A stretch of DNA of 64,000 nt, taken from assembly GCA_036785375.1 (NCBI GenBank), contig JAWMAR010000471.1:1178001-1242000 (forward strand), written 5' to 3'. Under the pieces are notes generated by a model. It saw only the letters and a program-made list of their open reading frames with translations, had not been told where the DNA came from and did not search any database. Both the position numbers and the translations under genes were made by a program. This stretch comes from Leucoraja ocellata. Lineage: Eukaryota. Each line of letters begins with the position of its first letter. Within the stretch, counting starts at the first letter, position 1. Of the stretch, positions 30,808 through 59,965 are shown one piece after another.

Positions 30808-32961
30808 TTACTTTAACTTACACTTTACCGATTTAAATATTTTTCCAATGCAAATGATCGGATATGTTAGCACACGGAACAGCTCCTCTCTGAACTTGCT
30901 CTGGGTCACGGTGTAAATGGCCGTGTTGGTGCAGGAGCTCAGCAGTTGAAGCATATTTCCAACCTTTTCAAATTCTTCTGCGGGATTTTTCCATGCCTTG
31001 AACACAAACAGTTTCCAACTTCGAACCGCAATAAAATGTGCGACACTTGTGGCCCAGAGCAGGATGAAGGAGCTCGAGATTGCCAGAAGTAAACGACCGA
31101 CCGTCTGCGGTTCACCATCTCCTGGTCTTTCTTTCTCTCCCCACCGCTGAGGTCCCGGAGGTTCCTGCGGACCCGGCTGGCCACGAAAATACGTCTGACG
31201 GTGAGCGCGTTAAACAACAAAATCAGGCAGAATGGAATCACCGGGGTGAACAACTGTTCGGCCCAGGAGAACACCAACCATTCGGCATGAACGTAAAAAT
31301 CTACGAGTTTGAGGCAGCCCAGTTCTCCACCCATTCCGAGATAAGAAGTGTATGCAAAGGGCAAGGGTAGATTTTTGAGGCAGATGACCGGGCTCACCGT
31401 CAGGATAACAATCGTCGCGGTTCTCTCGGTGCAATATTTGTTTTTCATGTTCTGAGTAGAAATCGCAACAAAGCGATCAAAGGTGAAAGCGACCGTGAAC
31501 CACACAGAACAATTTACCGTGACCGATGCCAGGTAGATTGTTATTTTGCACACAGATGTGTAGGGCAAGGAGGCATGCCACCAATACATATCAGCAATCC
31601 GCTGAAATATCACCTCACAGAAAATCACAGAGAGGTCCGCGGTCGCCATGGCTACCATGTAACGAGTGATGCACTTGGAGAGGCCGCACTTGCCACGGGA
31701 CAGGATCAAAATCGCCATCAGATTCACTGGGAAAGAATGAAAACAGAAACTGATTAATTGTGTGGTGGGTGGGAGCAGATGCAGTCATTTAAACCTGTGT
31801 CGCCAGTGGTAGAGACTGTTTATTTAACGAATCAGTATTTGGGTCAATCATCCGTCAATCGTTTGCCAGAAAGATGTTCATTCAGTAACTTATTAAATTC
31901 CTGATTAGCAAAATTAGTGGGATTGCCTTATGTAGAAAATAATTACATAAAGCTGAAAATATTGGTACAAGAGGCAATCCGATTTTAGAAATCAGGAATT
32001 TAATCTGCAAATGGATAAAATACCGTTTACCAAGATTAGTGGGAGTTCCTTTTGTACTAATCTTCACAACATTATGCCAACCGTTTGATGTTGATGTAAA
32101 ATATATAATATTTTCAAGCGGTGAGTCAGTGTCTCTAATTTTTTTTTATTGCTGAGAAGTGGGCAACTTTTGAGTCGGGGCATGTAGTCAATCGCGGCCT
32201 GGATTAACGTGGTCTGTTTTCCATTGGGCCTTCGAGAATGCATCTCCCAACACGGGGCCAAGGAAAGGGATTCAGTGAAGCGCAGCAAATATAATTACAA
32301 ACCCCCTTCGCAAACACGGCTAACAACATAACGGGCAGATATTTTCTGCCGAGCAGCGGGCGGGCCTGTGTACTGCACCTGACAAGAGCCAATGGTGGTG
32401 TATCTCAGTGGCGCAAGTAATATCTCTGGAGGACATCGACAGGCGACGTAGTAAAATCAATACGGGCATTGATTTTAGTAAAAAAAGCCGTGAGGGCTAC
32501 ATTTCTGCCAGCTTGAATGAGCGGCATCCATCACATATCGCTCCTGAGGTGGATATCGCTTACTTTATTTTAGTTTAGGAATACAGCGCGAAAACACAAC
32601 ACCGGCCCACCTAATCCGCACCGATCGCGCACACTCACAACAGCCGGCACACACAAGGTACAATTTATTTTACTTATATGGAGCGTGGGAGCAAACCGAA
32701 GATCTCGGGGAAAACCCAAAAGGATACGGGGAGAACGTACAAACTCCGTACAGACAAGCGCTGTAAGACAGTTACTCTCGCGCCGCGCCAGCGTGCCGCC
32801 CGAACCCCCCGCTGGGCTACTCGCTATGTCCTCTTAACCTTTAATATTCTGCGCTCTTCAAACATGAGATGAACCGACGATTACCTACCAGGTATACCGA
32901 TTGCTGCCAGAATCGGATAATACACAAGTCCTATTTTTACCTCGATCGGAATATCGTGCAT
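30808..32961 (-). pseudogene. GPR139/142-like GPCR, copy 3; exons 32889..32961 and 30808..31726, single 1-bp frameshift near 31091
   Basis: Exon 1 MHDIPIEVKIGLVYYPILAAIGIP. Exon 2 is split into ORFs 30939..31727 and 30808..31005 by AAAA>AAA relative to the other copies. Confidence 0.85.
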
Positions 32962-38829: not shown

Positions 38830-39111
38830 GTCTACTGAACGTCAGAGAAACGTCAGAACCACATCAGATGTTTCACATCAACTTCCAGGAACCAAACAAA
38901 TCAGCAGGCGTAACGGTCCCCTTCTCAAACTCTCCCTCTCCTCGCACATCGATTGGGATGTTTTCAAATATTCCCAGGACACCTCCCGCGCCTAAACCAA
39001 CAGGCCAGCAGAGGTTCCCGCTCAGTTCTCCGGGATAGGCTGCAGGATCTGTCTGGCGACCTGGTTTCCAGCCTCTCGTCACGCAAACTATTTATTCCCT
39101 GAGAAGGCGCG
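38830..39111 (+). promoter_or_regulatory. Putative NAR-TCR V promoter (paralogs ~53940-54220, ~58300-58740)
   Basis: Conserved non-repeat block upstream of each leader with clustered ACGTCA/CGTCA half-CRE sites and an AT-rich TATTTATT-like element. Confidence 0.5.
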
Positions 39112-39595
39112 ATGGGAATCATCCTGTTGTTTGTGCTGTCACTCTGCTTACGCCGTGAGTACCGGTCCCCTACTCCCACACAGTGCGGGTTTAACATAAA
39201 ACAACTCGAGTCCACTCCGACCTGAATTTCAAACGCTGCCCGCGATGTGTCCTTCTGCCATAGTTCGCCTCGAATTCCCACTCACCTCTCCCTGTGTTTA
39301 ATCTACAGACTCCTTCAGTCAGTCAGTGACCCAGAGCCCGAATGCGGTGGCTGGAAAAGAGTGTGAGTTCGTCACCATCACCTGCCTTTTCCAAGAAGGT
39401 TCCCGGGGTTACTACGAATTTAATGTAGGACATTTCTTCAAGCAAGCACAACCCGGTGCTAAACGGCAACGGATCACAACAGGTGGACGGTTTGTTGTGT
39501 CAACCAATAAATTTACATTTACGTTGAAAATTCTTGGTTTGAGAGTTGAGGACATGGCCACATATTACTGTCAAGCTGAGTACAGGTGGAGCATA
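39112..39595 (+). CDS. NAR-TCR (IgNAR-like) V gene segment 1: leader 39112..39154, V exon 39309..39595
   Basis: Leader MGIILLFVLSLCLR with phase-1 gtgagt. V: SVTQSP..GKECEFVTITC..HFFKQ..RITTGGRFVVS..FTLKILGLRVEDMATYYC. The short C-to-D region (no CDR2) is VNAR-like; extra FR1 Cys. Confidence 0.9.
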
Positions 39596-39633
39596 CACAG
39601 TGATGGGCGTGCGGTTCCAGCAATACAAAAACC
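39596..39633 (+). other. RSS of V1 (CACAGTG-22-ACAAAAACC)
   Basis: Consensus heptamer and nonamer. Confidence 0.97.
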
Positions 39634-39957
39634 CTGACGGCAGATTCTAGTAGCAACGTGAAGACGCGAGGTGAATCCACCGGGTAAACCCACGGGCCCG
39701 CTTTGTCCCGCCTGCCCTGCATTCTGGGTTACACCGGATGAAATGCGTGCGATTCAAACAATGGGGTTTCTCTATTTGGCGAGTGCGGCTGGATAATGCC
39801 CCCTGTACCGAAAATGGTGGAACCAACTGCCATCGAGAATGACTGACCCCTCTTCTGATGCACAACTCCAGACGGGATCCAGTTACACAAACTTCAATCT
39901 GAAAAATGCATTCGCTGAACGTTAATCTCCTGCCCGCCCGTCTCGCCGGGCGCCTGG

Positions 39958-40028
39958 GGATTTGAAAGTGACGTGTAACAACGTGTGGCAGCTGGATATC
40001 CACAGTGTAGGAGAGTCGAGTAAAAACT
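39958..40028 (+). other. D segment 1 (39986..40000 TGGCAGCTGGATATC) with 12/12 RSSs
   Basis: GGATTTGAA-12-CAACGTG on the 5' side; CACAGTG-12-GTAAAAACT on the 3' side; conserved in all three cassettes. Confidence 0.85.
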
Positions 40029-40339
40029 CACCCCATTCAAGATATATATTCTTGGGTTCCCCAACCAAAATCATACGATTATTGTTCGTGACGCTGTAGT
40101 CCAGATAAATTACACAGGGATTACCACATTCCGTTAACATTCCTTAATAATTGGTTCCCTGTTTGTCAAAGCACACAAGCCTGCGTGTGGGAGATCACTC
40201 TGCTCTTAGCTCTGTTTCTTAGCGGGAACCGGTCGACTCACCGAGGATTGTGGAGCAAGGACAGTAACTGGTTGGTCTGAGACTCCTGGAATAATTGGAC
40301 AGCGATTCTAATGGTAGCCGGGCAAATAGAGGTGAGGAC

Positions 40340-40435
40340 TGTTCTAGTACTGCGAGCATCGAGAGACGGGGCACTGTGGACCGTTGAGCACTTACTATCA
40401 GGATGGGACGGGGACTACGGCGACTGTCACAGCCG
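40340..40435 (+). other. J segment 1 (40379..40435, PLSTYYQDGTGTTATVTA) with 23-RSS
   Basis: TGTTCTAGT-23-CACTGTG; GxGT motif; phase-1 donor G|GTAAG. Confidence 0.9.
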
Positions 40436-41879
40436 GTAAGTACCCTAAACCTCTCTTATCCACGGTTGTTCTTGGAAATCTTCGGTTCCCTTTAACATTG
40501 GATCACGAGGCATCAATTGCTTTCCAATTGAAACAGATTCTAGTGCCAGAAACTTGGGCTAGATGTTACGATACACGTGGACCCAATGAGAGGATATGTC
40601 GGGCTCCCCGGGAGCACAACGTCAATCAGGTTGAAGAATACCGGCTTCCCCAAAACCCGTCAGGATCGGGAACACCATACCGCGCTAACCACAGCTATGA
40701 AATTCTATACAGACACAAATAAATGAGGACGCTGACATCGGATTCTGAAGTCTAGATTCCAAATGTCGGCTATCAATGTTCTCCTGAAATGCTGCCTGAC
40801 CCGCGGAGCTATTCCTACCACCAAACCGACGGCTTGCTCCAAAACACTGCGCCAATTCACCCTCTTGGTCTACCAGTTACTGCAGCACTTTGTGTTCATA
40901 AACTTTTCATAATTGTCTCTGGTTATACAAAGGATTTGTTTTTTTTTGTTGCTCTGGGATTGTGGCCATTAATTGATTCAAATCGTTTTGTATTATTATG
41001 AGAGGAATGGGGGTGATCGTGCGGAATCATTGGAGAATTGATCGGGTAGATACGCAGAGTCTCTTGTGCAGAGTAGCTGAGTCGATGACCGGCGGACGCA
41101 GGTTTAAGCTGAAGGGGAAGATTTATTAGGATTTCAGGGGTAACGTTTTCACACGGAGGGTAGTGGGTGAACAGAACAAGTTGTCAGAGTTACATAGCTG
41201 AAGGTGGCACTATCCCACTGTTTAAGAATCAGTTAGACAAGTACATGGACAGGACAGGTTTTTATGGATTGGACCCAACGCGGGTAGGTGAAACAATATT
41301 GCTGTGACATGTTTGCCGGTGTGTGCAACGTGAGCCGAAGAGCCTGTTTCCGCTTTATATTCCGCTCCATGACTCTATGACTCTGTTATCTGATGAAGCA
41401 TATTGCATTTCTAGGCCTGTGTGCATCTACAAGTAAGAATGTCACTGTTCCGTTGTCGGAACAGAATACATTTGAACAGCCTGTAATCGTCACTTTTGAT
41501 TCTAACGGGCAATGGCTGTTGGCCTTAATAGTTATGCCCACATCCAAAACAAAGACAAAGACCATGAGGCATAGAAGCAGAGTTAGGCCATTAGCCGGTC
41601 GTGGAAATTGAAATCCGCCTTTGGAAGTGAAAACGAAAAGTGCGCGGGTGAAGACTGCAATATGTAGCAAGGGTCAATTCAGAGAAAAGTGGGAAAGTAT
41701 CCGAGTTTGGAGCGTGAGGACGAAATGCCGATGTCAATGCTGCTCAAATCTCAATTAGAGTGACAGAGAGATCAGAACGTATCCTTCTCAAGTCCAGCGT
41801 GTGTAGGCTTGGAGTTAGCAAACGCTTCTGATGCGTGACCGAATGACCCCCCGCGTAAACCTCCGCTTGGCAATCTCCA

Positions 41880-42660
41880 AAACCACCTCATCCTTCCTCA
41901 GATACGGGACACAAATCTGCTCGCGATATTCCAAATGTGATCAAACCAGTGCCTAAAAAACATCTACCATTTACAGTAGATCCGTGTTTTTATATTCTAG
42001 TCGTCTCGAAATTAATGCTAACATTTAATTTGTCTCCCTGAACGACGATTTACACTGCAAATCCACAGTTTGGAGTTCCCGCACCTACATACACAAATCC
42101 CTTTGTACCGCCATTTCTGAATCCACTCCCCATTTAGAAAATAGAAAAGCGCCGTTAATCCTTCCGCCAAAGTGCATGCCCGTATAATGTGGTGTGTAGT
42201 ATTACATCTGTCACTTATTCCCCCCCCCCCCCCCCTCCCCTCCCCCTTCCAACGTGTTCCTGGAATTATTCAGTCTCCATGCTTACTCTACACTACCTGC
42301 CCCATCATCTATGTTTGGTATCGTCCGCGATATCAGCCGCAACAGCAATCAATTCCATCATCCAGATCATAAACATACAACGGGGAAAGTAGTGCACCCA
42401 ACATTGACCCATTAGTCAAAGGCAGCAAGCGGAAACAATCACTTTTATTCCAATATTTTGCCCTGCAACGGAAGCCTGTCCTCTGTCCAGGCTGAAACCT
42501 CATCTCTAACACCAATACTCCAATTTCAATTATCCGCTTCGCGTCCGGCACCAAGAAAGCTGCATTTCTGACTGTCCTTTGTCCATCCAGATAGCACTGA
42601 ACCGCATTTTTAATAATCGTTTCAAAAATCTTACCAATTATTGAAGCCATGCTAACCGCC
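41880..42660 (-). mobile_element. Old, diverged CR1-like RT remnant (paralog ~60890-61700)
   Basis: SIIGKIFETIIKN, GSMLGALL..LYVYDLD, ADDAK fragments. Confidence 0.7.
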
Positions 42661-43542
42661 TTATCATTACAACTGGCTTATCAATTTATCCCATAAAATC
42701 TATGGGATTGATCCACGCCCGCTGTGAGCGAAAGCCTGGGAAACAATCTATTTCTTACTCTAGGAAACAGAGGGAGGCTGGCGGGAGAGTAGATGGGCTG
42801 TGAGTGAAGCTGAACCGTCTGAAAACATTCCACTAACTGAAATCAAACGACAGCTGGCAGACCTGTTGAAACGGTTCTCTGGAGGGGGGAAATATGAACC
42901 ACAAGCAGCAAAAGGCGGGCATTCTAGATTAATAACCAAAACCGTTCTTCAATTCAATGAAAGTAAAATGTAGAAGGACGTTGCCCAGTGAAGGAAAAAA
43001 AACAACAACTCTTGATACATAAAGGGCAAAGCATTGATCCCGGGTTGTGTAAATTGGACTTAAAAGGTGACCTTCCAGTTGTTGAACCCAGAAGGCTGTG
43101 GAGGCCAAGTCAGGGGAAAATAAGGCAGGGTGAGATAGATTTTTGATTAGTCGAGGCGTCGGAGGTTTTGACATTGCGGAGAAGGCAGGAGAGCGGGGTT
43201 CGGAGGGTGACATAGTTCAGCCATTATTGAATGGCAGAGTGGGTCTGATGGGCCGAATGGCCTAATTGCACCGTTGAACCTTGACTATATCCAGGAAGGG
43301 ATACACTTCAGTCAAGCTGTGGGGAGAATGACTAGTTCTATTGTTTTAACGCCAAGAACCAATTAAAAAATATTAGAGAACCGAGTAAGGTAATTTATCT
43401 CATTCACCGAATCCCGACTCACTGAATCAGCTCCACTATTATTCCGTGCTCGCTTTGACTGTCCCCACAGCCTGGAATATTTCCAATTTCACTTTCATAA
43501 TCAGAGTTTGACCTCGCGGATATTCGTCAGTGATTGTCTCCA

Positions 43543-44500
43543 CGGTGGCACAACGGTAACGGTGCTGCCAAACAGCGCGTTTAGCACCAGAGACCCGAAT
43601 CCGATCCCGACTCCGAGTGTTGGCTGCACGGAGTTTGTATGTTCTCCCCATAATCTGTGTGGGTTTTCTCCGAGATAGAAACATAGAAACATAGAAAATG
43701 GGTGCAGGAGTTGGCCATTCGGCCCATCGATCCTGCACCGCCATTCAATATGATCATGACTGATCATCCAACTCAGAATACTGTACCTGCCTTCTCTCCA
43801 TACCCCCTGATCCCTTTAGCCACAAGGGCCACATCTAACTCCCTCTTAAATATAGCCAATGAACTGGCCTCAACTACCTTCTGCGGGAGAGACTTCCAGA
43901 GATTCACCACTCTCTGTGTGAAAAAAGTTTTCCTCATCTCGGTCATAAAAGATTTCCCCTTTATCTTTAAAATGTGACCCCTTGTTCTGGACTTCCCCAA
44001 CACCGGGAACAATCTTCCTGCATCTAGCCTGTCCAACCCCCTTAAGAATTTTGTAAGTTTCTATAAGATCCCCCCTCAATCTTCTAAATTCTAGCGAGTA
44101 CAATCCGAGTCTATCCATTCTTTCTTCTTATGAAAGTCCTGACATCCCAGGAATCAGTCTGGTGAACCTTCCCTGTACTCCCTCTATGGCAAAAATGTAT
44201 TTCCTCAAATTAGGAGACCAAAACTGAACGCAATAGTCCAGGTGTGGTCTCACCAATACCATGTACAACTGCAGTAGAACCTCCCTACTCCTATAATCTA
44301 GGGTTTCTTCCCACACTGCAAATACGGACAGTTTTGAAGGGTTATTGGCGCTCTATAAATGTAAATATTCCATCGTGTGTGTAGGATAGTGTTAATGTGC
44401 GGGGGTTGCAGGGCGGCGCGGACTTGGTGGGCCGAAGGGCCCGTTTCCGCGCTGTGTCCCTAAACTAAACTAAACTAAACTAAACTGAACTGAACTGAAC
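43543..44500 (+). mobile_element. V-SINE/HE1-like SINE interrupted by a CR1 3' fragment (43676-44296, -); uninterrupted paralog 62576-62905
   Basis: tRNA-like head, ggagtttgtatgttctcc core, (CTAAA)n tail. Confidence 0.8.
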
Positions 44501-44502
44501 TC

Positions 44503-45188
44503 CTTGAAGGTGGAATCGCATATAGACAGGGTGGTAAAGAAAGCTTTCGGTATGCTAGCCTTCATAAATCAGAGCATTGAGTATAGAAGCTGGGATGTAA
44601 TGTTAAAATTGTACAAGGCATTGTTGAGACCAAATCTGGAGTATGGTGTAGAATTTTTGTCACCCAATTGCCGGAAGGATGTCAACAAAATAGAGAGAGT
44701 ACAGAGGAGATTTACTAGAATGTTGCCTGGGTTTCAACAACAAAGTTACAGAGATAGGTTGAATAAGTTAGGTCTTTATTTTCTGGAGCGCAGAAGGTTA
44801 AGGGGGGACTTGATAGAGGTATTTAAAATGATGAGAGGGATAGACAGAGTTGATGTGGACAAGCTTTTCCCTTTGATAATAGGGAAGATTCAAACAAGAG
44901 GACGTGAATTCAGTATTAAGGGACAGAAGTTTAGGGGTAACATGAGGGGGAACTTCTTTACTCAGAGAGTGGTAGCTGTGTGGAATGAGCTTCCAGTGGA
45001 AGTGGTGGCGGCATGTTCGTTGGTATAATTTAAAAATAAATTGGATAGGCATATGGATGAGAAGAGAATGGAGGGTTATGGTATGAGTGCAGGCAGGTGG
45101 GACTAAGGGAAAACAAGTTGTTCGGCACGGACTTGTAGGGCCGACATGGCCTGTTTCCGTGCTGTAATTGTTATATCGTTATATGGTA
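44503..45188 (+). mobile_element. CR1 3' fragment just upstream of supporting Vdelta 1
   Basis: 174-aa ORF 44504..45028; absent from the paralogous site ~62905. Confidence 0.92.
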
Positions 45189-45403
45189 ATGTAAACTAAA
45201 CCAAACTATACTAAAGAAAACTAACCTAAACGAAATTAAATCTCCACTCGTCGAGGGAACAATTAAAGGATCCATAAATAACGTTTCCATACATTTTGCA
45301 AAAATGTGATGAACTACCGGAGACGGTAACTAGTTTCTGTGTGTGTCACAGTCTCCAACAGTCAATGTTAAAACAATAACTATTCCTCTGTTATTTTCCA
45401 CAG

Positions 45404-45709
45404 ATTCCATTTCCGCGAGTTCCCAGAGTCCGCCTCAACAATCCTCTCTTTCTGGTGACACTGCCACCCTTAACTGCGTATATTCCGGATTCTGCTCGTA
45501 CACAGTACACTGGTACCGACAGTTCCCAGGGCAGGCTCTGGAATTCCTGCTCCAAAGACACACTTCAGGAAAGCAAGATGAGGAAGAGGCTGCCGAAAGT
45601 CGTATTTCTGGTTCTCTCGATCCTGCCCAGAAAATCAGTCAGTTAACGCTCTCTGAAGTACTGCCGAGCGACGAGGCTGTTTATTACTGTGGGATGAGTC
45701 CGCGCATCG
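45404..45709 (+). CDS. TRDV: Supporting TCRdelta V exon 1 (leaderless, CDR1 Cys)
   Basis: Acceptor ttttccacag. DSISASSQSPP..GDTATLNCVYSGFCSYTVHWYRQFPGQALEFL..DEAVYYCGM. No leader exon seen upstream; phase matches the J donor. Confidence 0.88.
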
Positions 45710-45748
45710 CACAGTGGCACGGCGCAGTGAGATAGCTGTACCAAAACC
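45710..45748 (+). other. 23-RSS of supporting Vdelta 1 (CACAGTG-23-ACCAAAACC)
   Basis: Consensus heptamer; nonamer has one mismatch. Confidence 0.95.
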
Positions 45749-46051: not shown

Positions 46052-47108
46052 AGTCGACCCACCCCAAGGGGCTTGCCTGTTTTCTACCGGGATGTGTTAA
46101 GAGTGAGGAATCTGGTTGTTTTCAGCCAGCGTGTTGCTCCACGAGGGGAGGGGGATGTTGCGGCTGCGGGAGTGGCCGGTCCTCAACAAATCACGGCGGG
46201 TGTCGAGGAGAGGCGTGCGCCTAGAGTGGTTTTAAATGAGCTCTTACCCGCTCCGTCAGATCTGCTCATTGGGCCTCGGTTCCGGGATATATCTCGGGCA
46301 CCGGTTCCACACAACCTGAGCCGCCTTTCGGAGATGATTAGCGTGCCGTTTCGTGATGCGAAGAGACGCTCACTGTATAGAATGTTCCTGCACATTCTGC
46401 ACCTCCTTGCCTTCGTCTCCCGTCCCGACACACCATGGCGGACGGTGTTACCACCTGAAGGCGGGGAAAGTCCCCAGTGGGGGTCCCTCTACAAGGGAGT
46501 TGTCCCCCTTTACGTGGGGGACCTGGGGTGGAGAGTGCTGCACAGAGCGGTGGCGTGTAACAAACTTTCGAGTCGGTTCACGGACTCGTCCGCTGCCTGT
46601 ATTTTTTGTGGCGAGGAAGAGACCGTGTTCCACATTTATATGGAGTGTGAGAGGCTACTGCCCCTGTATCAATATCTGAAGGGGTTGTTCCTAAAGTTCT
46701 GGTTACATTTTAGTCCTACGATTCTTGTGTTTGGACACAAGGCAGGGTGTGGGGAGAGCCAAGTGGGAGGGTGGGACCTACCTGTCGGTCTACTCCTGGG
46801 CCTGGCCAAGATGGCCATACGCGGGTCCAGGCAGCAGGCGATGGAAGGTAAGGCAAGAGTCGGCTACTTGCCCCTCTTTCGGGCCTACGTCCGTGCACGT
46901 GTGTCCCTGGAGAGGGAACATGCGGTGCTCACGGGGACTTTGGAGGTATTCCGTGGGCGCTGGTCACCGCGTGGGGTTGAGAGTATTGTGAATAATGATT
47001 GTAACGTTGTACTATGATGGCACGATATATTGTAAGTTCGTTTTGTGTATGACTTGATCTGTTGTATTATTTGATGTGTTGAATAAAGTCTTTGAAAAAA
47101 GAAAAAAA
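46052..47108 (+). mobile_element. Tx1-like non-LTR retrotransposon 3' end (open ORF2 C-terminus)
   Basis: DLGWRVLHRA..CIFCGEEETVFHIYMEC zinc-binding motif; AATAAA and A-rich tail running into (GA)n. Confidence 0.88.
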
Positions 47109-49691
47109 GAGAGAGAGATAATCTCCCGCTTCCCTGAACGGAAATCGAATTCGTACCCCTGGAGCATGAGGGAAACTGGCTTAATTATTGTGCCTTAATC
47201 TACGTAACTCATCCTGGCCATGGAAGGGGAGAGAGAAGGGGAGAGAGATAAGAAAAAAGTTTCTCACAGAGAGAGTGGTGAATCTTTGTAATTCTCTGCC
47301 ACAGAAGGTAGTTGAGGCCATTTCCTTGGCTATATTTAAGTGGGTGTTACATGTAGCCTTATGGCTAAAGGGATGGAGAGAAGGCAGGAACAGGATACCG
47401 AGTTGAATGATCAGTCATGATCATATTGAATGGCGGTGCAGGCTCTAAGGGCCGAATGGCCTACTCGTGCACCTATTTTCTATGTTTCTATGTTTCTCTG
47501 AGAGACATAAGCTCCGGAGATATACATGCGATCGACACGGGAACCACCCCCTCAGACCTGCGCAAGAAAGCGTTGGAATCAGCGTGGAGCTGAAAGAAAA
47601 ACATTAAAGATTCATACAATAAATTTTCACTTTTATTTAGCTGGATAGAAACTTCCAAATTTGTTTCACGAGAGATCAGCAAATTTTAAAAAATCCCACG
47701 TAGTAAGGCTTTGTAGAGTTAATCGGGAGAATCATCAATATTGTTATGGGGCATACAATATACTTTCAATGGAGACAACAGCGGAGAAGGTAAGATTTTA
47801 GCAACTGAATTCAAGCCATTTGGACTAAGGAGCCTGCTGCATTCAAATAAACACACGAGTAGGAAAATGGACAATGGTCTTCGTTACGATTATCCCTACT
47901 AAATGGCGAGAAATATGGTTCAAAATTTTCCCCACCACACAGAATAATTCCGCTCACATTTACATGTCACGGAATGCGCGAATAAACATGTCCCTGTGAG
48001 GGGATGCTGCATGATAATGTTGGCAAAGTTGACATATGGACACCTGGAGGAGTTTAGTATCCTTTAATATATTAGACATTGGTTTGTGAACGACAGAGTG
48101 CACGAGCAATGTTTATTTTAGGACACGATAACGCCATTTTAATTCATAAATGGCAGAATATTTTCTTTTCTTCACAGTTTGCGAGGGAAGAGGAGAAATA
48201 GGTAGATACAAAGTTAACCACCCACCAGCCCCAATTTTGTAGTATCAGGGGAACATTATGCGGCTTGCCGCCTCTTGAGTGCAAATGAACAGCAGGCAGT
48301 ATCTCTACAGGAAAAGGATAGATGACGGTTCTGGTCAGGATCCTTCTTCCGTCTGCAAGTAGGGCGAGGCCACTGGATGCAAGAGTAGGCCAGAACGAGG
48401 TAGGGAAGGCAACACGTGACTAGGAAATGAAGGAGCCCATAATTGCCCATCGTTGGCTGTGGAATAAGTGGTCACACACAACTACAAAGATGCGAGCAGT
48501 ACAACTAGTGTGATGACTATGTTGGGGGAGAGGGTGAGAGAAAGGGAGTCAAGCGACCTACGAGATGCTGCTCCTTCATTTTGTGCGTGACCTCGCTCTA
48601 GCAGTTGAGGAGTACAACGACAGAATGGTTTATATGGGAATGGGTAGAGGTGTTAAAATGTTTGCCCACCTGGGAACGTAAAGGCCAATGTGGAAATTGA
48701 TTTATTACCGTACATGGGAGCCACAGAGTCACAGAGTCACAGAGTGATACAGTGTGGTATCAGGACCTTCGGCCCAACTCGACCATACCGGCCAACAATA
48801 TCCCAGACACACCAGTCCCACGCATGCGCTTGGTCCATATCCCTCCAAATCTCTCCTATCCAAGTAACTTTCTAACTGCTGCTTAAACGACGGGATAGTC
48901 CCAGGCACAACTACCTCTTGTCGCAGCTTGTTCCGTACACCCACCATCCTTTGTATGAAAATGTTTCCCCACCGAATCCTCTTAAATATGTTTCCCTTCT
49001 CCTTGATCCAATGTCCTCTGGTCGTAGATTCACTGGGCAAACGACTCTGTGCATCTAACCGATATATTCATCTCACGATTTTGTATTTCTGGCACTCCTC
49101 ACCTATAGCTCTACATTGGATAGAAGTTTTCCGTATACAGAAGGTATTTTAATCACGGTATCTGTATGAAACTTTGCACAATCCACATCATCCGCTGCTA
49201 AAACAGCAGATTATCTTTCAACCGAAAACCTCGTCAATGAGCAATTTTTAACGTTTTTTTTTAAATGATAAAAGGAAATCATCAAACAACACGTTGCACA
49301 TATTCATCTGAAAATATTCACTCGTTTTGAAAACAATATGTTCCAGGCTTATGTATACATATTCGTGAAAACACAGAAGTTGGATGATTGAACGGGGCAC
49401 ATGGGAATACGTACACGAGTTGAGACTCAGTTGAGCCCATGAACCCCCGAAGCCGTTGGGCGCGTCCGACAGGGCGAATGGACATAAAATGCTGTATTTC
49501 CATATTTAATTTTTATTTTTTATTTAACCTTTATTTAACCAGGAGAAGTCTCATTGAGATTAAAAATCTCTTTTACAAGAGAGTCCTGGCCAAGACAGAC
49601 AGCAGCACAGTTCCACAGTTCCACAGTTCCACATATAAACCATACAGCAAAGCAACGCATGAAGACCAGCTGGTCACTCGTGTGTGTTATA

Positions 49692-50949
49692 TTATTTTAA
49701 CTCACACTTTACCGATTTAAATATCTTTCCAGTGCAAATGATCGGATATTTTAGAACACGAAACAGCTCCTCTCTGAACTTGCTCTGGGTCACTGTGTAA
49801 ATGGCCGTGTTGGTGCAGGAGCTCAGCAGCTGAAGCATAAATCCAACCCTTTCCAATCCACCCAAGGGGTTTCCCCAGGCCTTGTGCATAAACACATTCA
49901 AACATCGAACCGCAATAAAGTGTGCGACACTTGTGGCCCAGAGCAGTATGAAGCAGCTCGAGATTGCCAGAAGTAAAACGACCGACCGTCTGCGGTTCAA
50001 CATCTCCTGGTCTTTCTTTTTCTCGCCACCGCTGAGGTCCCGGAGGTTCCTGCGGACCCGACTGGCCACGAAAATACGTCTGACGGTGAGCGCGTTAAAC
50101 AGCAAAATCAGGCAGAATGGAATCACCAGGGTGAACAACTGTTCGGCCCAAGAGAACACTATCCATTCGGGATCAACGAAGAAATATATGAATTTCAGGC
50201 AGCCCACTTCTCTACCCGCACCGTAAAAAGAAGTGTATGCAAAGGGCAAGGGTAGATTTTTGAGGCAGATGAGCGGGCTCACGGTCAGGATAACAATCGT
50301 CGCGGTTCTCTCGGTACAATATTTGGTTTTCATTCTCTGAGTAGAAATCGCAACAAAGCGATCAAAGGTGAAAGCGACTGTGAACCACACAGAACAATTC
50401 ACAGAGACTGATGCCAGGTAGATTGTCATTTTACACACAGGAGTGTAGAGCACGGAGGCATGCCACCAATACATATCAGCAATCCGGTGAAATATCACCT
50501 CACAGAGAATCACGGAGAGGTCCGCGGTCGCCATGGCTACCATGTAACGAGTGATGCATTTGGAGAGGCCGCACTTGCCACGGGACAGGATCAAAATCGC
50601 CATCAGATTCACTGAGAAAGAATGAAACGAGAAACGGATTAATTTTGAGGTGTACAGGTTGGTGGGTGGGAGCAGACGGAGAAAACCGAAGATTTCGGGG
50701 AAACCCCAAAAGGATACGGGGAGCAGTACAATCTCCGTACAGCCAAGCGCTGTAAGACAGTTACTCTAGCGCTGTACCAGCGTGCCGCCCGAACCCCCGC
50801 TGGGCTATTCGCTATGTCCTCTTAACCTTTAATATTCAGGGCTTTTCAAACATGAGATGCGCCGACAATTACCTACCAGGTATACCGATTGCTGCCAGAA
50901 TCGGATAATACACACGTCCAAATTTTACCTCGATCGGAATACCGTGCAT
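49692..50949 (-). CDS. GPR139/142-like GPCR, copy 4; complement(join(49692..50611,50877..50949)), 330 aa
   Basis: Intact ORF. Exon 1 MHGIPIEVKFGRVYYPILAAIGIP, gtaggt donor, tttctcag acceptor, 265-bp intron. Confidence 0.92.
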
Positions 50950-51139
50950 TTTAATACGGGGATCCAGCCGATCACTCCTTGTGCTGCAGCTCAGCGGTTG
51001 TCAGCCAAGCAAACAAATATCTGCCATATTTATAATGTAAATGAAGCGAAAAACAGGCAACGAGATTACATCCCTGTGGACATTACTTACACACTTTTCA
51101 ACAAACATCTACGGTTTTGCATGTAATACTCAAAATCAC

Positions 51140-53920
51140 CTTGTTCTTAAACTGTGCCACCCCCTGGCTCTGCACTCCCCAACATCGGGAACATGGTTCG
51201 CGATTCTAGCGTGTCCAAACCCTTAATAATCTGAAGAAGGGTTTCGGCCCGAAACGTCGCCTATTTCCTTCGCTCCATAGATGCTGCTGCACCCGCTGAG
51301 TTTCTCCAGCTTTTTTGTGTAACCCTTGATAATCATATATGTTTAAATACGAGCCCCTCTCATTCTTCTAAATTCCAGAGTATACAAGATCAGCCGCTCC
51401 ATTCTCTCAGCATGTAACAGCCACACCATCCCGGGAATTAACCTTGTGAACCTACGCTGCATTACCTCAGTAGCAAGAATATTGGACCGGCTAGATGCAG
51501 GAAAATGTTCCGGATATTGAGAGAGTCCAGAAACAGAGGTCCCAGTTTAAGAATAAGCGGTAGGCCATTTAGAAACATAGAAACAGAAAATTCGATGCAC
51601 GAGTAGGCCATTCGGTCCTTCGAGCCAGAACCGTCATTCAATGTCTTCATGGCTGAACATCTAAAATCAGTACCTCGTTCATGTTTGTACCCCATATCCC
51701 TTGATTCCTTTAGTCCCGAGAGCTTAATCTAACGTTCTCTTGCAACGTCCGGTGAAAATTCCTCCACTCTATTCTGTGCCTGAGAATTCCACAGATTTAC
51801 AACTCTCTGGGTGAAAGAGACGTGTCCTCATCTCAGTCCTAAATGGCCTATCCGTATTCTTAAACATTGAACCCTTATTCTCGACTCCACCAACATCGAG
51901 AACATGTTTCCTGCATATTGCCTTGCCAACCCTTTAAGAATTGTATATGTTTCTTTAACATACCCTCTCATCCTTCCAAATGCCAGTGAATACAAGCACA
52001 CTCAACCCATTCTTTCATCATATGGCAGTTCCGCCATCGCGGGAATTAACCTGGAGAACCGATGTTGCACTTCCTCAATAGAAATCATGTCCTTCCACAA
52101 ATTAGGAGGCCAAAATCATTGACAAATGCGGTCTCACAATGGCCCAAAACAACTTAGGACTGAGATGAGGAAAATCTGTTTCTCCCAGAGAGTTGTAAAT
52201 CTGTGGAATGCTCTACCAAGAAGGCCGTGGAGTCCAATTCACTGGAATATTTCACACGAGAGTTAGATTTAGCTCTTCGGGCTAAACGAAACAAGGGATA
52301 TGGGGAGAAAGCAGGAACGGTGTACTGATTTTAAATAGAAACATCGAAACATAGAAATATAGGTGCAGGGAGAGACTATAAGGCCCTTCCAGTCCGCACC
52401 GCCACGATCATAGCTGCTCATCCACAAACAAATACCCGTGCCTTTCTTCTTCCCATGCCCCTGCATTCCGCTAGCCCCAAGACCTCTCGCTGTCTTTTAA
52501 TTTCATCCAGTGAATTGGCCTCCATTGTCTTCTGTGGCAGAGATTTCCACAAATTCACAACTCTCTTGGTGAAAGAGATAATTCTCATCTCAGTTTTAAA
52601 TGACCTCCCCTTTCTTCTAAGACTTTGGCCCCTTTTGCTCCCCCAGCATTAGGAACATTTTTCCTGCATCTAGCTTGTCCAGTACTTTTATAATTTTATA
52701 TGTTTCTATAAGATATTCCCTTCATCCTGCTGAATTCGAATGAATACATGCCCAGTCTTTCTCATATTCCTCAAATGACAGACCTGCCATACCTGGGATT
52801 AACCTTGTAAACTCCGTCAATAGCAAGGAAGTCCTTCCCCTAATTAGGAGACATAAACTGCACACAATATTCAACATGTTGTCTCACCAGTGCCGTGTAC
52901 AACTGCAGAAGGACCTCCTTACTCGTGTAGTCAAATCCGCTCATTATGAAGGCCAACATGCCATTACATTTCTTTACTACCTGCTGTAGAACACCCAGGT
53001 CACGTTCCACTTCCCATTTTCCCCAATTGAAACCATTGAGATAATAATCTACCTCGATGTTCTTGCCGTCAATGTGTATAATCTCGCATTTACCTGCATT
53101 ATACAGCATCTGCCACGTATCTGCCCACTCACTCAACCTATCCAAGTCACCCCGCAACGACCTGACATCCTTTCCGCAGTTCAAACTGTCACCCAGCGTT
53201 GCGTCATCTGCAAATTTGCTCGTGTTTCTTTTAATTCCATAATCTAAATCATTAATATATATTGTCAATAGTTACGGCCCCTGCACCGAGCCTAGCGGCA
53301 CTCCACTCGCCACTGCCTGCCATTCTAACAGGGACCTTCTTGTTCCATTTTACTTGTCACATTCTCAAACATTCCAGATCGGAGTCAAGCAGGATTTCAC
53401 TTCCATAACTCCATGCTGACTTGGACTAATCATTTTACCGCTATCCAAATGCGCCGTTGTTACTATAAAAATTGACTCTGGCATCTTCCCCAGTTCCGAT
53501 ATCAGGCTAACAGGTCTCTAATTTCCCGTTTTCTCTCTCCCTCCTTTCTTGAAAAGTGGGGTAACATTAGCTCCCCTCCAATACACAAGAACTCATCCTG
53601 AAGCTCTAGAACATTGGAAATGATCAAAAAATACGTCCACGATTTCTAGAGCCACTTCCTTGAGTAGTTGTGATGCAAACCATCACACCCTGGGTATTTA
53701 GCAGGCTACAGTCCCATCAGTTTACCCAATGCTATTTCTTGCCCAATGCAAATTTATTTCAGTTCCTCTTTCTCCAGAGACCCTCTGTCCTCTAGTATAC
53801 CTGGGAGATTGTTGTGTCTTCCCTAGCGAAGATAGAACCAAAGTACCTATTCAACTCTTCTGCCATTTCCTTGTTCCCATAATTAATTCACCTGTTTCTG
53901 CCTTCTATGGACTGACATCT
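51140..53920. mobile_element. CR1 mosaic paralogous to 33150-36600, with a short Penelope terminus at ~51231-51320
   Basis: KFADDATL and other CR1 fragments in the same order as duplicon A. Confidence 0.88.
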
Positions 53921-54220
53921 GACTGAATGGTTCAGATGCTCTACTGAACGTCAGAGAAACGTCAAAGCCACGTCAGACGTTTCACATCAGTTTCTGGGCC
54001 ACCAAACAAATCAGCACATTTAACGGACCCCGCCTCTAACTCTCCGTCTATTCGCACATCGATTGGGATTTTTTCAAAAATCCCCAGGACAACGCACTCA
54101 CCGAAACGAACAGACCAGCTGTTGCTCCAGCTCAGTTCTCCGGGATAGGCTGCAGGATCTGTCCGGCGACCTGGGATCCAGACTCTCGTCAAGTAAACCA
54201 TTTATCCCGGAGAAGGCGCG

Positions 54221-54704
54221 ATGGGAATCCTCCTGTTGTTTGTGCTGTCACTCTGCTTACGCCGTGAGTACCGGTCCCCTACTCCCACACAGTGCGGGTT
54301 TAACATAAAACTACTCGCGTCCACTCCGACCTGAATTTCAAACACTGCTCGCGATGTATCCTTCTGTCATGGTTCGCCTGGAAATCCCACTCACCTCTCC
54401 CTGTGTTTTATTTACAGACTCCGTCAGTCAGTCAGTGACCCAGAGCCCGAATGCGGTGGCTGGAAAAGAGTGTGAGCCCGTCACCATCACCTGCCGTTTC
54501 CAAGAAGATTCCAGTGGCAGGTGCGTACGTCGTCAAACACATTTCGTCAAGCGAGCACAACCCGGTGCTGAACCGCAGCAGATCAAAAGAGTTGGACGGT
54601 TTGTTGTGTCGGCCAATAAAAGGAGAATTACCTTGAAAATTCTTGGTTTGAGAGTTGAGGACCTGGGCACATATTACTGTCGAGCTGTGTTAATGTGCAG
54701 GGGG
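54221..54704 (+). CDS. NAR-TCR V gene segment 2: leader 54221..54263, V exon 54418..54704
   Basis: Leader MGILLLFVLSLCLR; open V exon with five Cys; RSS CACAGGG-22-ACAAAAACC at 54705-54742. Confidence 0.88.
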
Positions 54705-55068
54705 CACAGGGATGGGCCAGCGCTTCGCGCAGCACAAAAACCCTCACTGCACATTCTGCTAGCAACGTGAAGACCGGAGGTGAATCCACCGGGTAAACCC
54801 ACGGGCCCGCTTTGTCTCGCCTGTCCTGCATTATGGGTTACACCCGATGAAATGCGTGCGATTGAAACAATGGGGTTTTCTCCATTTGGCGAGTGCGGCT
54901 CGATAATGCCCCCTGTACCGAATATGGTGTAAACGAACTGCCATCGAGAATGACTGTCCACTCTTCTGATGCACAACTCCAGACTGGATCCAGTTACAGA
55001 AACTGCAATCTGAAAAATGCATTCGCTGAACCTTAATCTCCTGCCGGCCCGTCTCGCCGGACGCCTGG

Positions 55069-55140
55069 GGATTTGAAAGTGACGTGTAACAACGTGTGGC
55101 AGTCGGGCTATCCACAGTGTAGGAGAGTCGAGTAAAAACT
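55069..55140 (+). other. D segment 2 (55097..55112 TGGCAGTCGGGCTATC) with 12/12 RSSs
   Basis: Same RSS pair as D1. Confidence 0.85.
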
Positions 55141-55451
55141 CACCCCATTCAAGATATATATTCTTGGGTTCCGGAACCAAAATATAACGATTATTGTTCG
55201 TGACGCTGTAGTCCAGATAAATTACACAGGGATTACCACATTCCTTTAACATTCCTTAATAATTGGTTCCCTGTTTCTCAAAGCACACAAGCCTGCGTGT
55301 TGGAGATCACTCTGCTCTTAGCTCTGTTTCTTAGCGGGAACCGGTCGACCCACCGAGGATTGGAGAACAAGGCCAGTAACTGGTTGGTCTGAAACTCCTG
55401 GAATAATTGGACACCGATTCTAATGGTAGCCGGGCAAATAGAGGTGAGGAC

Positions 55452-55533
55452 TGTTCTTGCACTACGAGCATCGAGAGACGGGGCACTGTGCGCTATCAGT
55501 ATGGGTCGGGGACTACGGTGACTGTCACAGCCG
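55452..55533 (+). other. J segment 2 (55491..55533, RYQYGSGTTVTVTA) with 23-RSS
   Basis: TGTTCTTGC-23-CACTGTG; IgNAR-like YGxGT motif; G|GTAAG donor. Confidence 0.92.
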
Positions 55534-56027
55534 GTAAGTACCGTAAACCTCTCTTATCCACGGTTGTTCTTGGAAATATTCGGTTCTCTTTAAAATTGTA
55601 TCACGAGGCATCAATTGCTTTCCAATTGAAACAGATTCCAGTGCCAGAAACTTGGGCTAGATGTTACGGTACACGTGAGTCCAATGAGAGAATATGTCGG
55701 GCTCCCCGGGAGCACAAAGTTAATCAGGTTGAAGAATAGCTTCTTCCCCAAAATCATCAGGATCGGGAACACCATACCGTGCTAACCACAGCTATGGATT
55801 CTAGGCAGCCACAAGCAAATGCGGACGCTGACATCGGATTCTGAAGTCTAGATTCTAAATTTCGGCTATCAATGTTCTCCTGAAATGCTGCCTGACCCGC
55901 GGAGTTATTCCTACCACCAAACCGCCGGCTTGCTCCAAAACACTGCGCCAATTCACCCTCTTGGTCTACCAGTTACTGCAGCACTTTGTGTTCATAAACT
56001 TTTCATTATTGTCTCTGGTTATACAAG

Positions 56028-57040
56028 CATAGAAACATAGAAATTAGGTGCAGGAGTAGGCCATTCGGCCCTTCGAGCCTGCACCGCCATTCAATATCAT
56101 CATGGCTGATCATCCAACTCAGTATCCCGTACCTGCCTTCTCTTCATACCCTCTGATCCTCTTGGCCATAAGGGCCACATCTAACTCCCTCTTAAATATA
56201 GCCAATGCACTGGCCTCAACTACCCTCTGTGGCAGAGAATTCCAGAGATGCACCACTCTCTGTGTGAAAAAAGTTCTCCTCATCTCGGTTTTAAACGATT
56301 CCCCACTTATCCTTAAGCTGTGACCCCATGTCCTGGACTTCCTCAACATCTGGAACAATCTTCCTGCATCTAGCTTGTCCACCCCCTTAAGAATGTTGTA
56401 AGTTTCTATAAGATCCCCTCTCAATCTCCTAAATTCTAGAGAGTATAAACCAAGTCTATCCAGTCTTTCTTCATAAGACTGTCTAGACATCCCAGGAATC
56501 AGTCTGGTGAACCTTCTCTGCACTCCCTCTGTGGCAATAATGTCCTTCCTCAGATTTGGAGACCAACACTGTACGCAATACTCCAGGTGTGGTCTCACCA
56601 AGACCCTGTACAGCTGCAGTAGAACCGCCCTGCTCCTATACTCAAACCCTTTTGCTATGAAAGCCAACATACCATTCGCTTTTTTTACTGCCTGCTGCAC
56701 CTGCATGCATACCTTCAATGACTGGTGTACCATGACACCCAGGTCTCGCTGCATCTCCCCCTTTCCCAATCGGCCACCATTTAGATAATAGTCTGCTTTC
56801 CCGTTTCTGTACCAAAATGGATAACCTCGCATTTATGTAGGTAGTTGAGGACAGTTAATTGGCTATATTTAAGAGGGAGTTACATGTGGACCGTGTGGCT
56901 AAAGATATCAGGGGGTATTGAGAGAAGGCAGGTACAAGATACTGTGTTGGATGATCAGCCTTGATCATATTGAATGGCGGTGTTGGCTTGCGGGGCCGAA
57001 TGGCCTACTCCTGCACCTATTTTCTATGTTTCTATGTTTC
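56028..57040. mobile_element. Young CR1 3' fragment (-, 237-aa ORF 56119..56832) abutting a + strand CR1 tail
   Basis: RPHLEYCVQ, RRLRGDLIE; GAAACATA tails at both outer ends. Confidence 0.92.
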
Positions 57041-58486
57041 TAGCAGAAAATTTGATACAGGATTAGGCCATACTGTCCTTCGAGCCAGCGCCACCATTCA
57101 ATGTCGTCATGGCTGATCATCTAAAATCAGTACCTCGTTCCTGTTTTTACCCCATATCCCTCGATTCCTTTTCGTCCCAAGAGCTAAATCTAACTCTCTT
57201 GAAACATCCAGTGAATATTCTGTGCCAGAGAATTCCACAGATTTACAACTCTCTGGGTGAAAGATATGTGCCCTCACCTCAGTCCCAAATGGCCTATCCT
57301 TATTCTTAAACTGTGAATCCTTATTCTGGACTCCACCAACATTGGGAACATGTTTCCTGCATCTAGCCTATCCAACCCTTTAAGAATTGTATATGTTTCT
57401 ATAAAATCCCCTCTCGTCCTTCAAAATCCCCTCTCGTCCTTCGGTGAATACAAGCCCTATCATCCTATTCATTCATCATATGTCAGTCCCGCCATCGCGG
57501 GAATTATCCTGGAGAACCGATGCTGCACTTCCTCAATAGCAATCATGTCCTTCCACAAATTAGGAGACCAAAATCGCTCACAAAAGCGGTCTCATAAGGG
57601 CCCAAGACAACTTAGGACTGATATGAGGAAAATCTGTTTCACCCAGAGAGTTGTGAATCTGTGGAATGCTCTACCACAGAGGCAGTAGAGGAAAATTCAC
57701 TGGAAGATTTCACGAGACAGTTAGATTTAGCTCTTTGGGGCTAAAATAAACAAGGGATATGGGGAGAAAGCAGGAACGGGGTACTGATTTTAAATAGAAA
57801 CTTCAAAACACAGAAGATAGGTGCACGAGGAGGCTATATGGCCCTTCGAGTCAGCACCGCCATGCATATTGATCATGGCTGCTCATCCACTATCAGTAAC
57901 ACGTGCCTGCCTTCTCCTCATTCCTCTTGGTTCACCCAGCCCCAAGAGCTCTATCTGGATCTATTTTAATTTCATCCAGCGAATTGGCCTCCATTGCCTT
58001 CTGTGGTAGACATTTCCACAAATTCACAACTCACTGGGTGAAAAAAGATTTTCCCCATCTCAGTTTTAAATGATCTCCCCTTTACTCTTAGTCTGTGCAT
58101 TCTGGTTCTGGACCCCGCCAGCATTTTGAACATCGTTCCTGCATCTAGCTTGACCAGTCCTTTTATAATTGTTTCTGTTTCTGCAAGATATCCCCTCATC
58201 CTTCTAAATTCCAGTGAATACATAGAAACATAGAAAATAGGACTGTGCGTCCACCCTATCTACTCCCCTCATTGTTCAGCTGCCTGAATGGTTGAGATGG
58301 TCAACTGGACGTCAGAGAAACGTCAGAGCCACATCAGATTCTAGGCCACCAAGCAAAGCAACAGGTTTAAGGATCCCCTTCTCAAACTCTCTGTCTCCTC
58401 GCACATCGATTGGGATTCTTTCAAACGTTACCAGTACACCCCCCGCAGCGAAACGAACAGGCCATCTGAGGTGCCCGCTCAGTTCT

Positions 58487-58657
58487 AAGAGGGAGTTAGA
58501 TGTGGCCCTTGTGGCTAAGGGGATCAGGGGATATGGAGAGAAGGCAGGTACGGGATAGTGAGTTGGATGATCAGCCATGATCATATTGAATGGCGGTCCA
58601 GGCTCGAAGGGCCGAATGGCCTACTCCTGCACCTAATTTCTATGTTTCTATGTTTCT
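58487..58657 (+). mobile_element. Short CR1 tail inserted in the cassette-3 promoter region
   Basis: Interrupts ctcagttct|ccgggatagg, which is contiguous in cassettes 1 and 2. Confidence 0.92.
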
Positions 58658-58740
58658 CCGGGATAGGCTGCAGGATCTGTCGGGAGACCTGGTTTTCCAG
58701 CCTCTCGTCACGTGAACCATTTATTCCCGGATACGGTGCG

Positions 58741-58776
58741 ATGGGAATCATCCTGTTGTTTGTGCTGTCGCCATGA
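58741..58776 (+). pseudogene. Inactivated leader exon of NAR-TCR cassette 3
   Basis: 11-bp deletion (actctgcttac) and donor GTGAGT>ATGAGT; reads MGIILLFVLSP*. Confidence 0.9.
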
Positions 58777-58926
58777 GTACCGGCCCCCTACTCCCACACA
58801 GTGCGGGTTTAACATAAAACAACTCGAGTCCAGTCCGACCTGAATTTCAAACACTGCCCGCGATGTATCCTTCTGCCGTGGTTCGCCTGGAATTCCCACT
58901 CACCTCTCCCTGTGTTTCATCTACAG

Positions 58927-59219
58927 ACGCCGTCAGTCAGTCAGTGACCCAGAGCCCGAATGCGGTGACTGGAAAAGAGTGTGAGTCCGTCACCATCACC
59001 TGCCTTTTCCAAGAAGGTTCCAGTGGCAGCTACGAATTAAATGTAGGACATTTCTTCAAGCAAGCACAACCCGGTGCTAAACGGCAGCGGATCACAACAG
59101 GTGGACGGTTTGTTGGGTCAACCAATAAAACGGAAAATACGTTTACGTTGAAAATTCTTAGTTTGAGAGTTGAGGACACGGCCACATATTACTGTCAAGC
59201 TGAATACAGGTGCAAAACA
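58927..59219 (+). CDS. NAR-TCR V exon 3 (open frame, no functional leader)
   Basis: Acceptor ctacag; ..GKECESVTITC..EDTATYYCQAEYRCKT; RSS CACAGTG-22-ACAAAAACC at 59220-59257. Confidence 0.85.
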
Positions 59220-59582
59220 CACAGTGATGGGCCTGCGGTTCCAGCAATACAAAAACCCTGACGGCAGATTCTAGTGGCAACGTGAAGATACGATGTGAAT
59301 CCACCGGGTAAACCCACGGGCCCGCTTTGTCCCGCCTGCCCTGCATTCTGGGTTGTACCGGATGAAATGCGTGCGATTCAAACAATGGGGTTTCTCTATT
59401 TGGCGAGTGCGGCTGAATAATGCCCCCTGTACCGAATATGGTGTAAACGAACTGCCATCGAGAATGACTGACCACTCTTCTGATGCACAACTCCAGACGG
59501 GATCCAGATACGCAAACTCCAATCTGAAAAATGCATTCGCTGAACGTTAATCTCCTGCCCGCCCGTCTCGCCGGGAGCCTGG

Positions 59583-59654
59583 GGATTTGAAAGTGACGTG
59601 TAACAACGTGTGGCAGTTGGGATATCCACAGTGTTGAAGAGTCGAGTAAAAACT
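59583..59654 (+). other. D segment 3 (59611..59626 TGGCAGTTGGGATATC) with 12/12 RSSs
   Basis: Same RSS pair as D1 and D2. Confidence 0.85.
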
Positions 59655-59965
59655 CACTCCATTCAAGATATATATTCTTGGGTTCCGGAACCAAAATCAT
59701 ACGATTATTGTTCGTGACGCTGTCGTCCAGATAAATTACACAGGGATTACCACATTCCATTAACATTCCTTAATAATTGTTTCCCTGTTTGTCAAAACAC
59801 ACCGGCCTGCGTGTGGGAGATCATTCTGCTCTTAGCTCTGTTTTTTAGCTGGAACCGGTCGACCCACCGAGGATTGGGGAGCAAGGACAGTAACTGGTTG
59901 GTCTGAAAGTCCTTGAATAATTGGACAGCGATTCTAATGGTTGCCGGGCAAATCGCGGTGTGAAC

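Follow-up and report, generated by a model that had tools for sequence, protein, structure and literature searches.

What kind of antigen receptor does a germline leader-V-D-J cluster encode when the next exon downstream is a second variable (V) exon without a leader of its own? We asked this of a 64,000-nt stretch of the skate Leucoraja ocellata (GenBank assembly GCA_036785375.1, contig JAWMAR010000471.1, positions 1,178,001 to 1,242,000 of the forward strand; hereafter the window), in which such a cluster, cassette A, occupies positions 39112-45748. An earlier note on this DNA had read it as a complete germline unit of NAR-TCR, the T-cell receptor (TCR) delta chain of cartilaginous fish with two independently rearranged V domains. 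This receptor type has reportedly been known since 2006, from the work of Criscitiello and others. Our analysis of the sequence indicates that the region is very probably a germline NAR-TCR cassette of the TCR alpha/delta locus, predicted to place two separately rearranged V domains on one chain. Its exons, segments and recombination signal sequences (RSSs) are as follows.

39112-39154, + strand: leader exon A, 43 nt (14 codons plus 1 nt), phase 1, GT donor
39309-39595, + strand: NAR-TCR V exon A (V1), AG acceptor, open, Pfam V-set E 5.5e-6
39596-39633, + strand: V 3' RSS A, consensus heptamer and nonamer, 22-bp spacer (23 class)
39957-39985, - strand: D 5' RSS A, weak, 13-bp spacer, 2 heptamer and 3 nonamer mismatches
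39986-40000, + strand: D segment A, 15 nt, open in three forward frames
40001-40028, + strand: D 3' RSS A, perfect heptamer, 12-bp spacer, 3 nonamer mismatches
40340-40378, - strand: J 5' RSS A, inverted, 23-bp spacer, 3 nonamer mismatches
40379-40435, + strand: J segment A, NAR-type D-G-x-G motif, GTAAGT donor, phase 1
45404-45709, + strand: supporting Vdelta A exon, leaderless, phase-1 acceptor, open, V-set E 3.6e-15
45710-45748, + strand: Vdelta A 3' RSS, 23-bp spacer, 1 mismatch

All of the parts described in the earlier note were present and open at their positions, the D 5' RSS being the weak one among the signals. Cassette A contained no stop codon, frameshift or broken splice site, and its leader agreed with the N-terminus of skate and shark gene models. 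Both the leader-V and the J-Vdelta junctions were phase 1, and the J donor, as had been proposed, fitted the Vdelta acceptor in frame across an intron of 4968 nt, giving Asp as the junction codon. V1 has a cysteine in the A-B loop (Cys18, codon 39362) and Phe at the canonical Trp site (position 42). Counted on the translations, the Trp site and the second canonical Cys are 45 residues apart in V1 compared with 59 in Vdelta A, and it is because of these 14 fewer residues that we call V1 devoid of the second complementarity-determining region (CDR2-less). The D-G-x-G motif of J was also found in relatives. Vdelta A retains the canonical Trp and carries a cysteine in CDR1 (Cys30, codon 45493), which is Cys30 as well in the Vdelta of cassette C, described below.

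The claim that Vdelta has its own 23-RSS and no leader was upheld. A crude leader scan, in which the true leader A was recovered as a control, gave two leader-like matches in the ~5-kb intron of cassette A (at 41393 and 45146) and none in the introns of the neighbouring cassettes B and C; both were taken as chance matches, the one at 45146 lying in a repeat tail that is absent from C. This tail of a repeat insertion (45146-45191), found in the intron of A only, holds a hydrophobic open reading frame (ORF) of 13 codons, whose phase-1 GT donor is 218 nt from the downstream Vdelta acceptor; it is probably a chance feature yet a possible accidental leader for Vdelta A.

Recombination signals were far denser in the cassette than expected. 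Counting as RSS-like any site with a perfect heptamer and at most three nonamer mismatches (by the textbook consensus), we obtained five sites in 39112-45748, whereas dinucleotide shuffles contained 0.02 on average and never more than 1 (0/300 reached five). Among these sites, the one at 39179-39206 is cryptic: it lies in the leader intron, recurs in the leader introns of B and C, has a perfect heptamer, a 12-bp spacer and three nonamer mismatches in both A and C, and has no evident role. Since the signals of V (22-bp spacer) and J (23-bp spacer) belong to the same spacer class, the 12/23 rule makes a D segment obligatory; no second D-like RSS pair was found between V and J of cassette A at up to five mismatches. 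The resulting signal order, 23-12/12-23, is what we take to be an IgH-like one.

The region upstream of the leader was compatible with expression in T cells. Tandem half-sites resembling the cAMP response element (CRE) lie 273 and 262 nt 5' of the ATG of cassette A, within a putative promoter:

38839-38855, + strand: tandem CRE-like half-sites, putative promoter of cassette A

The identity and meaning of these and the other promoter motifs are presumptive. A TATA-like element is present at -21, and no Ig octamer was found within 500 nt 5' of the cassette. The spacing of the half-sites is equal in cassette B and is displaced in C by a repeat insertion, and of the 20 half-sites of this kind in the window, 7 belong to the three cassette promoters. 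An octamer located 475 nt upstream of B was set aside, as it falls within repeat-derived sequence and the 500 nt preceding A contain none. The CRE-like sites and the absence of an octamer near leader A would fit a T-cell promoter.

We compared the cassette with the marks of NAR-TCR given in the 2007 elephant shark paper (PMC1845163), namely a leader, an a-b-loop Cys and no WYRK-motif Trp in the NAR V, together with a CDR1 Cys and the lack of a leader in the associated Vdelta of nurse and elephant shark. Cassette A showed five out of five. A protein search with V1 yielded 13 longer proteins, all of them gene models from skates, sawfish or sharks, 229-282 residues long. Among the best 120 of 127 matches in a profile search, the first 79 were of the NAR-TCR family; 76 named ones were used and three unnamed ones omitted. 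The domain order in these 76 chondrichthyan models was NAR V-Vdelta in 71, V-V-Vdelta in two, Vdelta alone in two and NAR V alone in one, and an alignment census of the relatives showed that the A-B Cys (71/72), the non-Trp residue (73/73) and the Vdelta CDR1 Cys (73/75) are kept. V1 was 84-86% identical to models of the thorny skate (Amblyraja radiata). In table S1 of PMC12227049, the great white shark gene LOC121270138 is hand-labelled NARTCRdV and three NARTCRV genes of a stingray are listed; the identity of the LOC121270138 model (P0034) was 57% with V1 and 56% with Vdelta A. In a tree of 65 rows and 103 columns, an NAR V clade of 28 rows (100/99) united the three NAR V of the window with all NAR-TCR V, including the hand-labelled great white sequence, which was likewise represented in a Vdelta clade of 27 rows (100/98), and both window Vdelta clustered with Amblyraja and Leucoraja (100/100), which points to a rajid skate. 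The assignment to NAR-TCR made in the earlier note is borne out by these results.

Its expectation that automated annotation would probably miss the unit did not hold in related genomes, given the 71 of 76 models that join NAR V to Vdelta. There RefSeq reads across the RSSs to join leader, V, J and Vdelta and files the product under wrong names ('uncharacterized', 'Ig gamma-1 heavy chain-like', 'lachesin-like'), so that such units are misnamed, not missed. Two-V models of Amblyraja radiata (LOC116981485 and LOC116981479) and Leucoraja erinacea (LOC129716318) are near-orthologous to cassette A, with Vdelta up to 95% identical, the same leader and the same J-to-Vdelta junction; unlike A, they have wrong or no names, RSS read-through and a full-length D-E loop.

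Because no IgNAR was among the protein matches, IgNAR was compared with V1 by structure only. The predicted structure of V1 adopted a V-domain fold with a mean pLDDT (predicted local distance difference test) of 79, and Foldseek placed V domains of IgNAR (VNARs) in the first 22 of 33 rows at 26-37% identity, that to a skate IgNAR V (8ht3) being 36%. The likeness lies in the CDR2-less single-domain fold. IgNAR clusters, which according to PMC4279169 carry three D segments, and which have Ig constant exons, differ from cassette A with its one D, its Vdelta, its lost Trp and its gained A-B Cys; one D per cassette was found also at relaxed thresholds. Downstream of J, no C1-set match was detected among 37 + strand ORFs of at least 78 residues (40.3-64 kb). 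The earlier note had named a J spliced to an Ig constant exon and a V1 grouping with IgNAR or conventional TCR V as findings that would count against it; no such exon was detected in that range, and V1 fell in the NAR-TCR clade, in a tree without IgNAR. In sequence searches of the PDB with V1 and with Vdelta, multi-domain antibody constructs predominated in the best 60 rows each, which held no NAR-TCR, and one supplement file of the 2014 elephant shark paper contained no NAR terms.

In six shark models (five of Mustelus and one of Heptranchias) a constant region follows this type of Vdelta, and the one such region tested matched the human TCR delta constant best (E 1e-11) compared with 2e-4 for full alpha chains. 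The Mustelus asterias models (P0023, P0031, P0037, P0038 and P0078) lie on five different small scaffolds, and their delta-like constant ends fall into two or more sequence types, which hints that this shark has several constant genes linked to NAR-TCR, or else haplotigs. Each of the five bears the name 'TCR alpha chain-like'.

How the cassette may work can be inferred from the rules of V(D)J joining together with the receptor as described in PMC5931798, PMC6795676 and PMC3457774. RAG would join V, D and J inside the cassette and would separately join Vdelta, by its 23-RSS, to Ddelta-Jdelta beyond the window. The transcript from the promoter 5' of the leader would then be spliced from leader to NAR-VDJ, to Vdelta-DJ and to Cdelta, with all junctions in phase 1. 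The NAR domain would form the unpaired tip of the chain and act as a single-domain binding site, anchored by a predicted disulfide bond between its A-B-loop Cys and the CDR1 Cys of Vdelta, while Vdelta-Cdelta would pair with TCR gamma. Since Vdelta is leaderless, it would reach the surface only beneath the NAR domain.

Several points weigh against reading the locus as a functional NAR-TCR unit. The word 'complete' in the earlier note holds for the V-encoding cassette and fails for the Jdelta and constant exons, as neither these nor a Ddelta were found in the 64-kb window, where tblastn with six constant-region queries gave no credible match (best E 0.03 over 18 residues). The tree contained no IgNAR and no ordinary shark TCR V rows. 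The protein searches matched no named NAR-TCR cDNA (none from nurse shark) and no IgNAR, so that the reference is a hand-labelled genome model, and the V-to-Cdelta links in relatives come from automated gene models, not cDNAs. With VIA, the VNARs came first with Z up to 9.8 compared with 8.8 for TCR and light-chain V, a margin of only ~1. The D 5' RSS of cassette A is far from consensus, with five mismatches. The V of both A and B is two residues short in the D-E loop (HV4) compared with copy C and with 71/71 parsed homologous domains, and J A has Ala in place of a usually conserved Val; the short loop and the Ala could impair folding. Splicing and expression of cassette A are themselves predicted from its sequence.

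Two further cassettes, B and C, were passed over in the earlier note. A, B and C are tandem NAR-TCR copies with a non-coding divergence of 5-9%.

54221-55533, + strand: cassette B, intact L-V-D-J, Vdelta absent; leader 54221-54263, V 54418-54704 (one heptamer mismatch), D 55097-55112, short J 55491-55533
58741-63466, + strand: cassette C, dead leader; V 58927-59219, D 59611-59626, J 60005-60061, RSSs intact
63122-63466, + strand: supporting Vdelta C, 23-RSS, 93% protein identity to Vdelta A

No Vdelta follows cassette B, the intron of which matches its counterpart in A over the first 500 nt before giving way to repeats. Its V exon differed from that of A at 50 of 287 sites (17.4%) compared with 51 of 788 in the flanking non-coding DNA (6.5%; p 4e-7), and the changes were mostly non-synonymous, with a ratio of non-synonymous to synonymous differences (pN/pS) of 2.3 that is not significant alone (p 0.06). 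This pattern suggests that V B has diverged through diversifying selection rather than decay. V B also has a long branch in the tree (0.5) and two extra cysteine residues, at position 35 (CDR1) and at position 93 (CDR3 edge, 3' end), resembling the CDR1 and CDR3 Cys pair that type II VNARs carry according to PMC12907318. In cassette C the leader has an 11-bp deletion and an in-frame stop and has lost its donor GT, and a repeat lies in its promoter at 58486-58657, whereas the splice acceptor of V C is intact. Between A and C, Vdelta diverged by 3.9% and V by 7.7%, as expected of a support domain that is the more conserved of the two; the A-C V comparison gave a near-neutral pN/pS of 0.92, with the V exon not above non-coding divergence (p 0.32).

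The alternative that survives best is that cassette A is a true NAR-TCR homologue yet silent, which we consider unlikely: its weak D 5' RSS would block the joining of V to D, its short D-E loop would destabilise the domain, or the cassette would be an orphon distant from Ddelta-Jdelta-Cdelta. The 13-bp spacer and the mismatches of the D 5' RSS, the loop deletion seen in none of the 71 homologous domains and the near-neutral V of A and C speak for it, and the dead leader of C shows that decay does occur in this array. However, the weak D 5' signal is identical in all three copies although their D cores differ, and B has the same loop length in a V that diverges well beyond its non-coding surroundings. 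Moreover, the V1 model adopts a V-domain fold, and A has none of the stops, frameshifts or broken splice sites of a decaying gene.

Next, an assembly artefact of a repeat-rich locus might underlie the association of J A with Vdelta A, or the layout of B and C. The window has three N gaps, and both Vdelta stop 160-170 nt short of one. The first gap (11546-11745) is flanked by a 9.3-kb inverted duplication (1-9339 compared with 11746-21092, 99.3% identity) that starts at it and probably reflects an error of scaffolding or else a palindrome of very recent origin; this near-perfect duplication at the window start points to a draft assembly. The cassette introns are packed with multi-copy fragments resembling long interspersed nuclear elements, and non-LTR (long terminal repeat) retrotransposon remnants with a zf-RVT domain lie beside assembly gaps (46052-47017 and 9564-10556). 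Nevertheless, 39112-45748 and 46052-63634 are gap-free, the introns of A and C are collinear across several blocks at 83-98% identity, the 5-9% non-coding divergence is too high for two haplotypes of one locus, and the same V-J-Vdelta order occurs in related genomes, making an artefact very improbable. That the L-V-D-J belongs to an IgNAR cluster, or is a stray Ig V-D-J, with an unrelated TCR V pseudogene that has lost its leader downstream of it, is extremely improbable, since the VNAR-like fold, the NAR-type J and the presumably IgH-like signal order in its favour are set against one D instead of three, the lack of a constant exon 3' of J, the NAR-TCR marks of lost Trp and A-B Cys, an identity of 36% to skate IgNAR V, the V-J-Vdelta linkage in 71 of 76 shark and ray models and the CRE-like sites without an octamer near leader A.

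Taking cassette A as a NAR-TCR cassette, we asked how B and C might be used. As B has lost its Vdelta and C its leader, B most likely uses Vdelta C, either by splicing past C or with V B joined to the D-J of C, which the 12/23 rule permits. The J donor of B is also in frame with the V C acceptor, with Asp at the junction, and the J of C is in frame with Vdelta C, so that B and C could in principle encode a three-V, triply rearranging TCR delta chain in which V C would serve as a second leaderless supporting domain. B would supply the only working promoter and leader of the two, no gap separates B from C, and V B is fast-diverging. Such a chain would require three in-frame rearrangements on one allele, and V C has no CDR1 Cys to pair with the A-B-loop Cys of B. 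Skipping to Vdelta C, or joining V B to the D-J of C, explains the layout more easily, and from the sequence we regard a three-V chain as quite improbable. The V-V-Vdelta models P0014 (Heterodontus) and P0015 (Carcharodon LOC121270133) each link two NAR V-J units, the first partial and the second full, to one Vdelta, and such pairs before a single Vdelta may therefore recur in sharks; the first V being partial in both counts against a three-V chain. Table S1 of PMC12227049 gives the P0015 locus the label 'NARTCR V(gj)V(gi)V'. A literature search, with most subscription papers outside it, found nothing on three-V or triply rearranging NAR-TCR chains.

The array also contains genes for GPR139-like orphan G-protein-coupled receptors, of which the four two-exon genes are 91-95% alike in DNA.

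49692-50949, - strand: GPR139-like gene, two exons (exon 1 50949-50877, exon 2 50611-49692), open, head-to-head with cassette B
30811-32961, - strand: GPR139-like copy, frameshifted, head-to-head with cassette A
5922-8215, + strand: further GPR139-like copy
12870-15163, - strand: further GPR139-like copy

The name was taken from ESM Atlas cluster names, as the PDB gave a best E of 5e-6 with GPR139 itself at 2e-3. The stretches preceding A (28.5-39.1 kb) and B (48.0-54.2 kb) are collinear and each carry an opposite-strand GPR139-like gene, and the duplicated block thus includes that gene. We suggest that a block of GPR139-like gene, NAR L-V-D-J and Vdelta would have been duplicated in tandem, after which B lost its Vdelta and C its leader. 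Within the same literature scope, nothing was found on a linkage of GPR139 to cartilaginous-fish immunoglobulin.

In shark NAR-TCR (nurse, elephant and great white) the NAR V likewise bears a leader and has a D and J of its own, and the supporting Vdelta lacks a leader and has a CDR1 Cys. The skate array differs in the short D-E loop of A and B, in the missing Vdelta of B and leader of C and in its interleaved GPR139-like genes. TCR mu of marsupials and monotremes is, according to PMC3457774, similarly a three-domain chain with an unpaired, diverse N-terminal V on a supporting V; it is convergent, however, with a VH-like top V and, in marsupials, a germline-joined supporting V.

Cassette A is an ordinary member of the known NAR-TCR family, and a skate copy is unsurprising to a specialist, because the receptor type is long known and stingray NARTCRV genes were already listed in the table cited above. 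What the window adds are germline coordinates, to the base, of the leader, V, D, J and RSSs that automated models blur and misname, so that primers for repertoire work can be designed. The array displays the birth and death of cassettes in progress, and its B-C pair makes testable whether an NAR V-D-J is bound to its own Vdelta or is able to use the D-J or Vdelta of a neighbour. A three-V chain, if true, would be a new receptor architecture, in which V C would repeat the step that gave rise to NAR-TCR.

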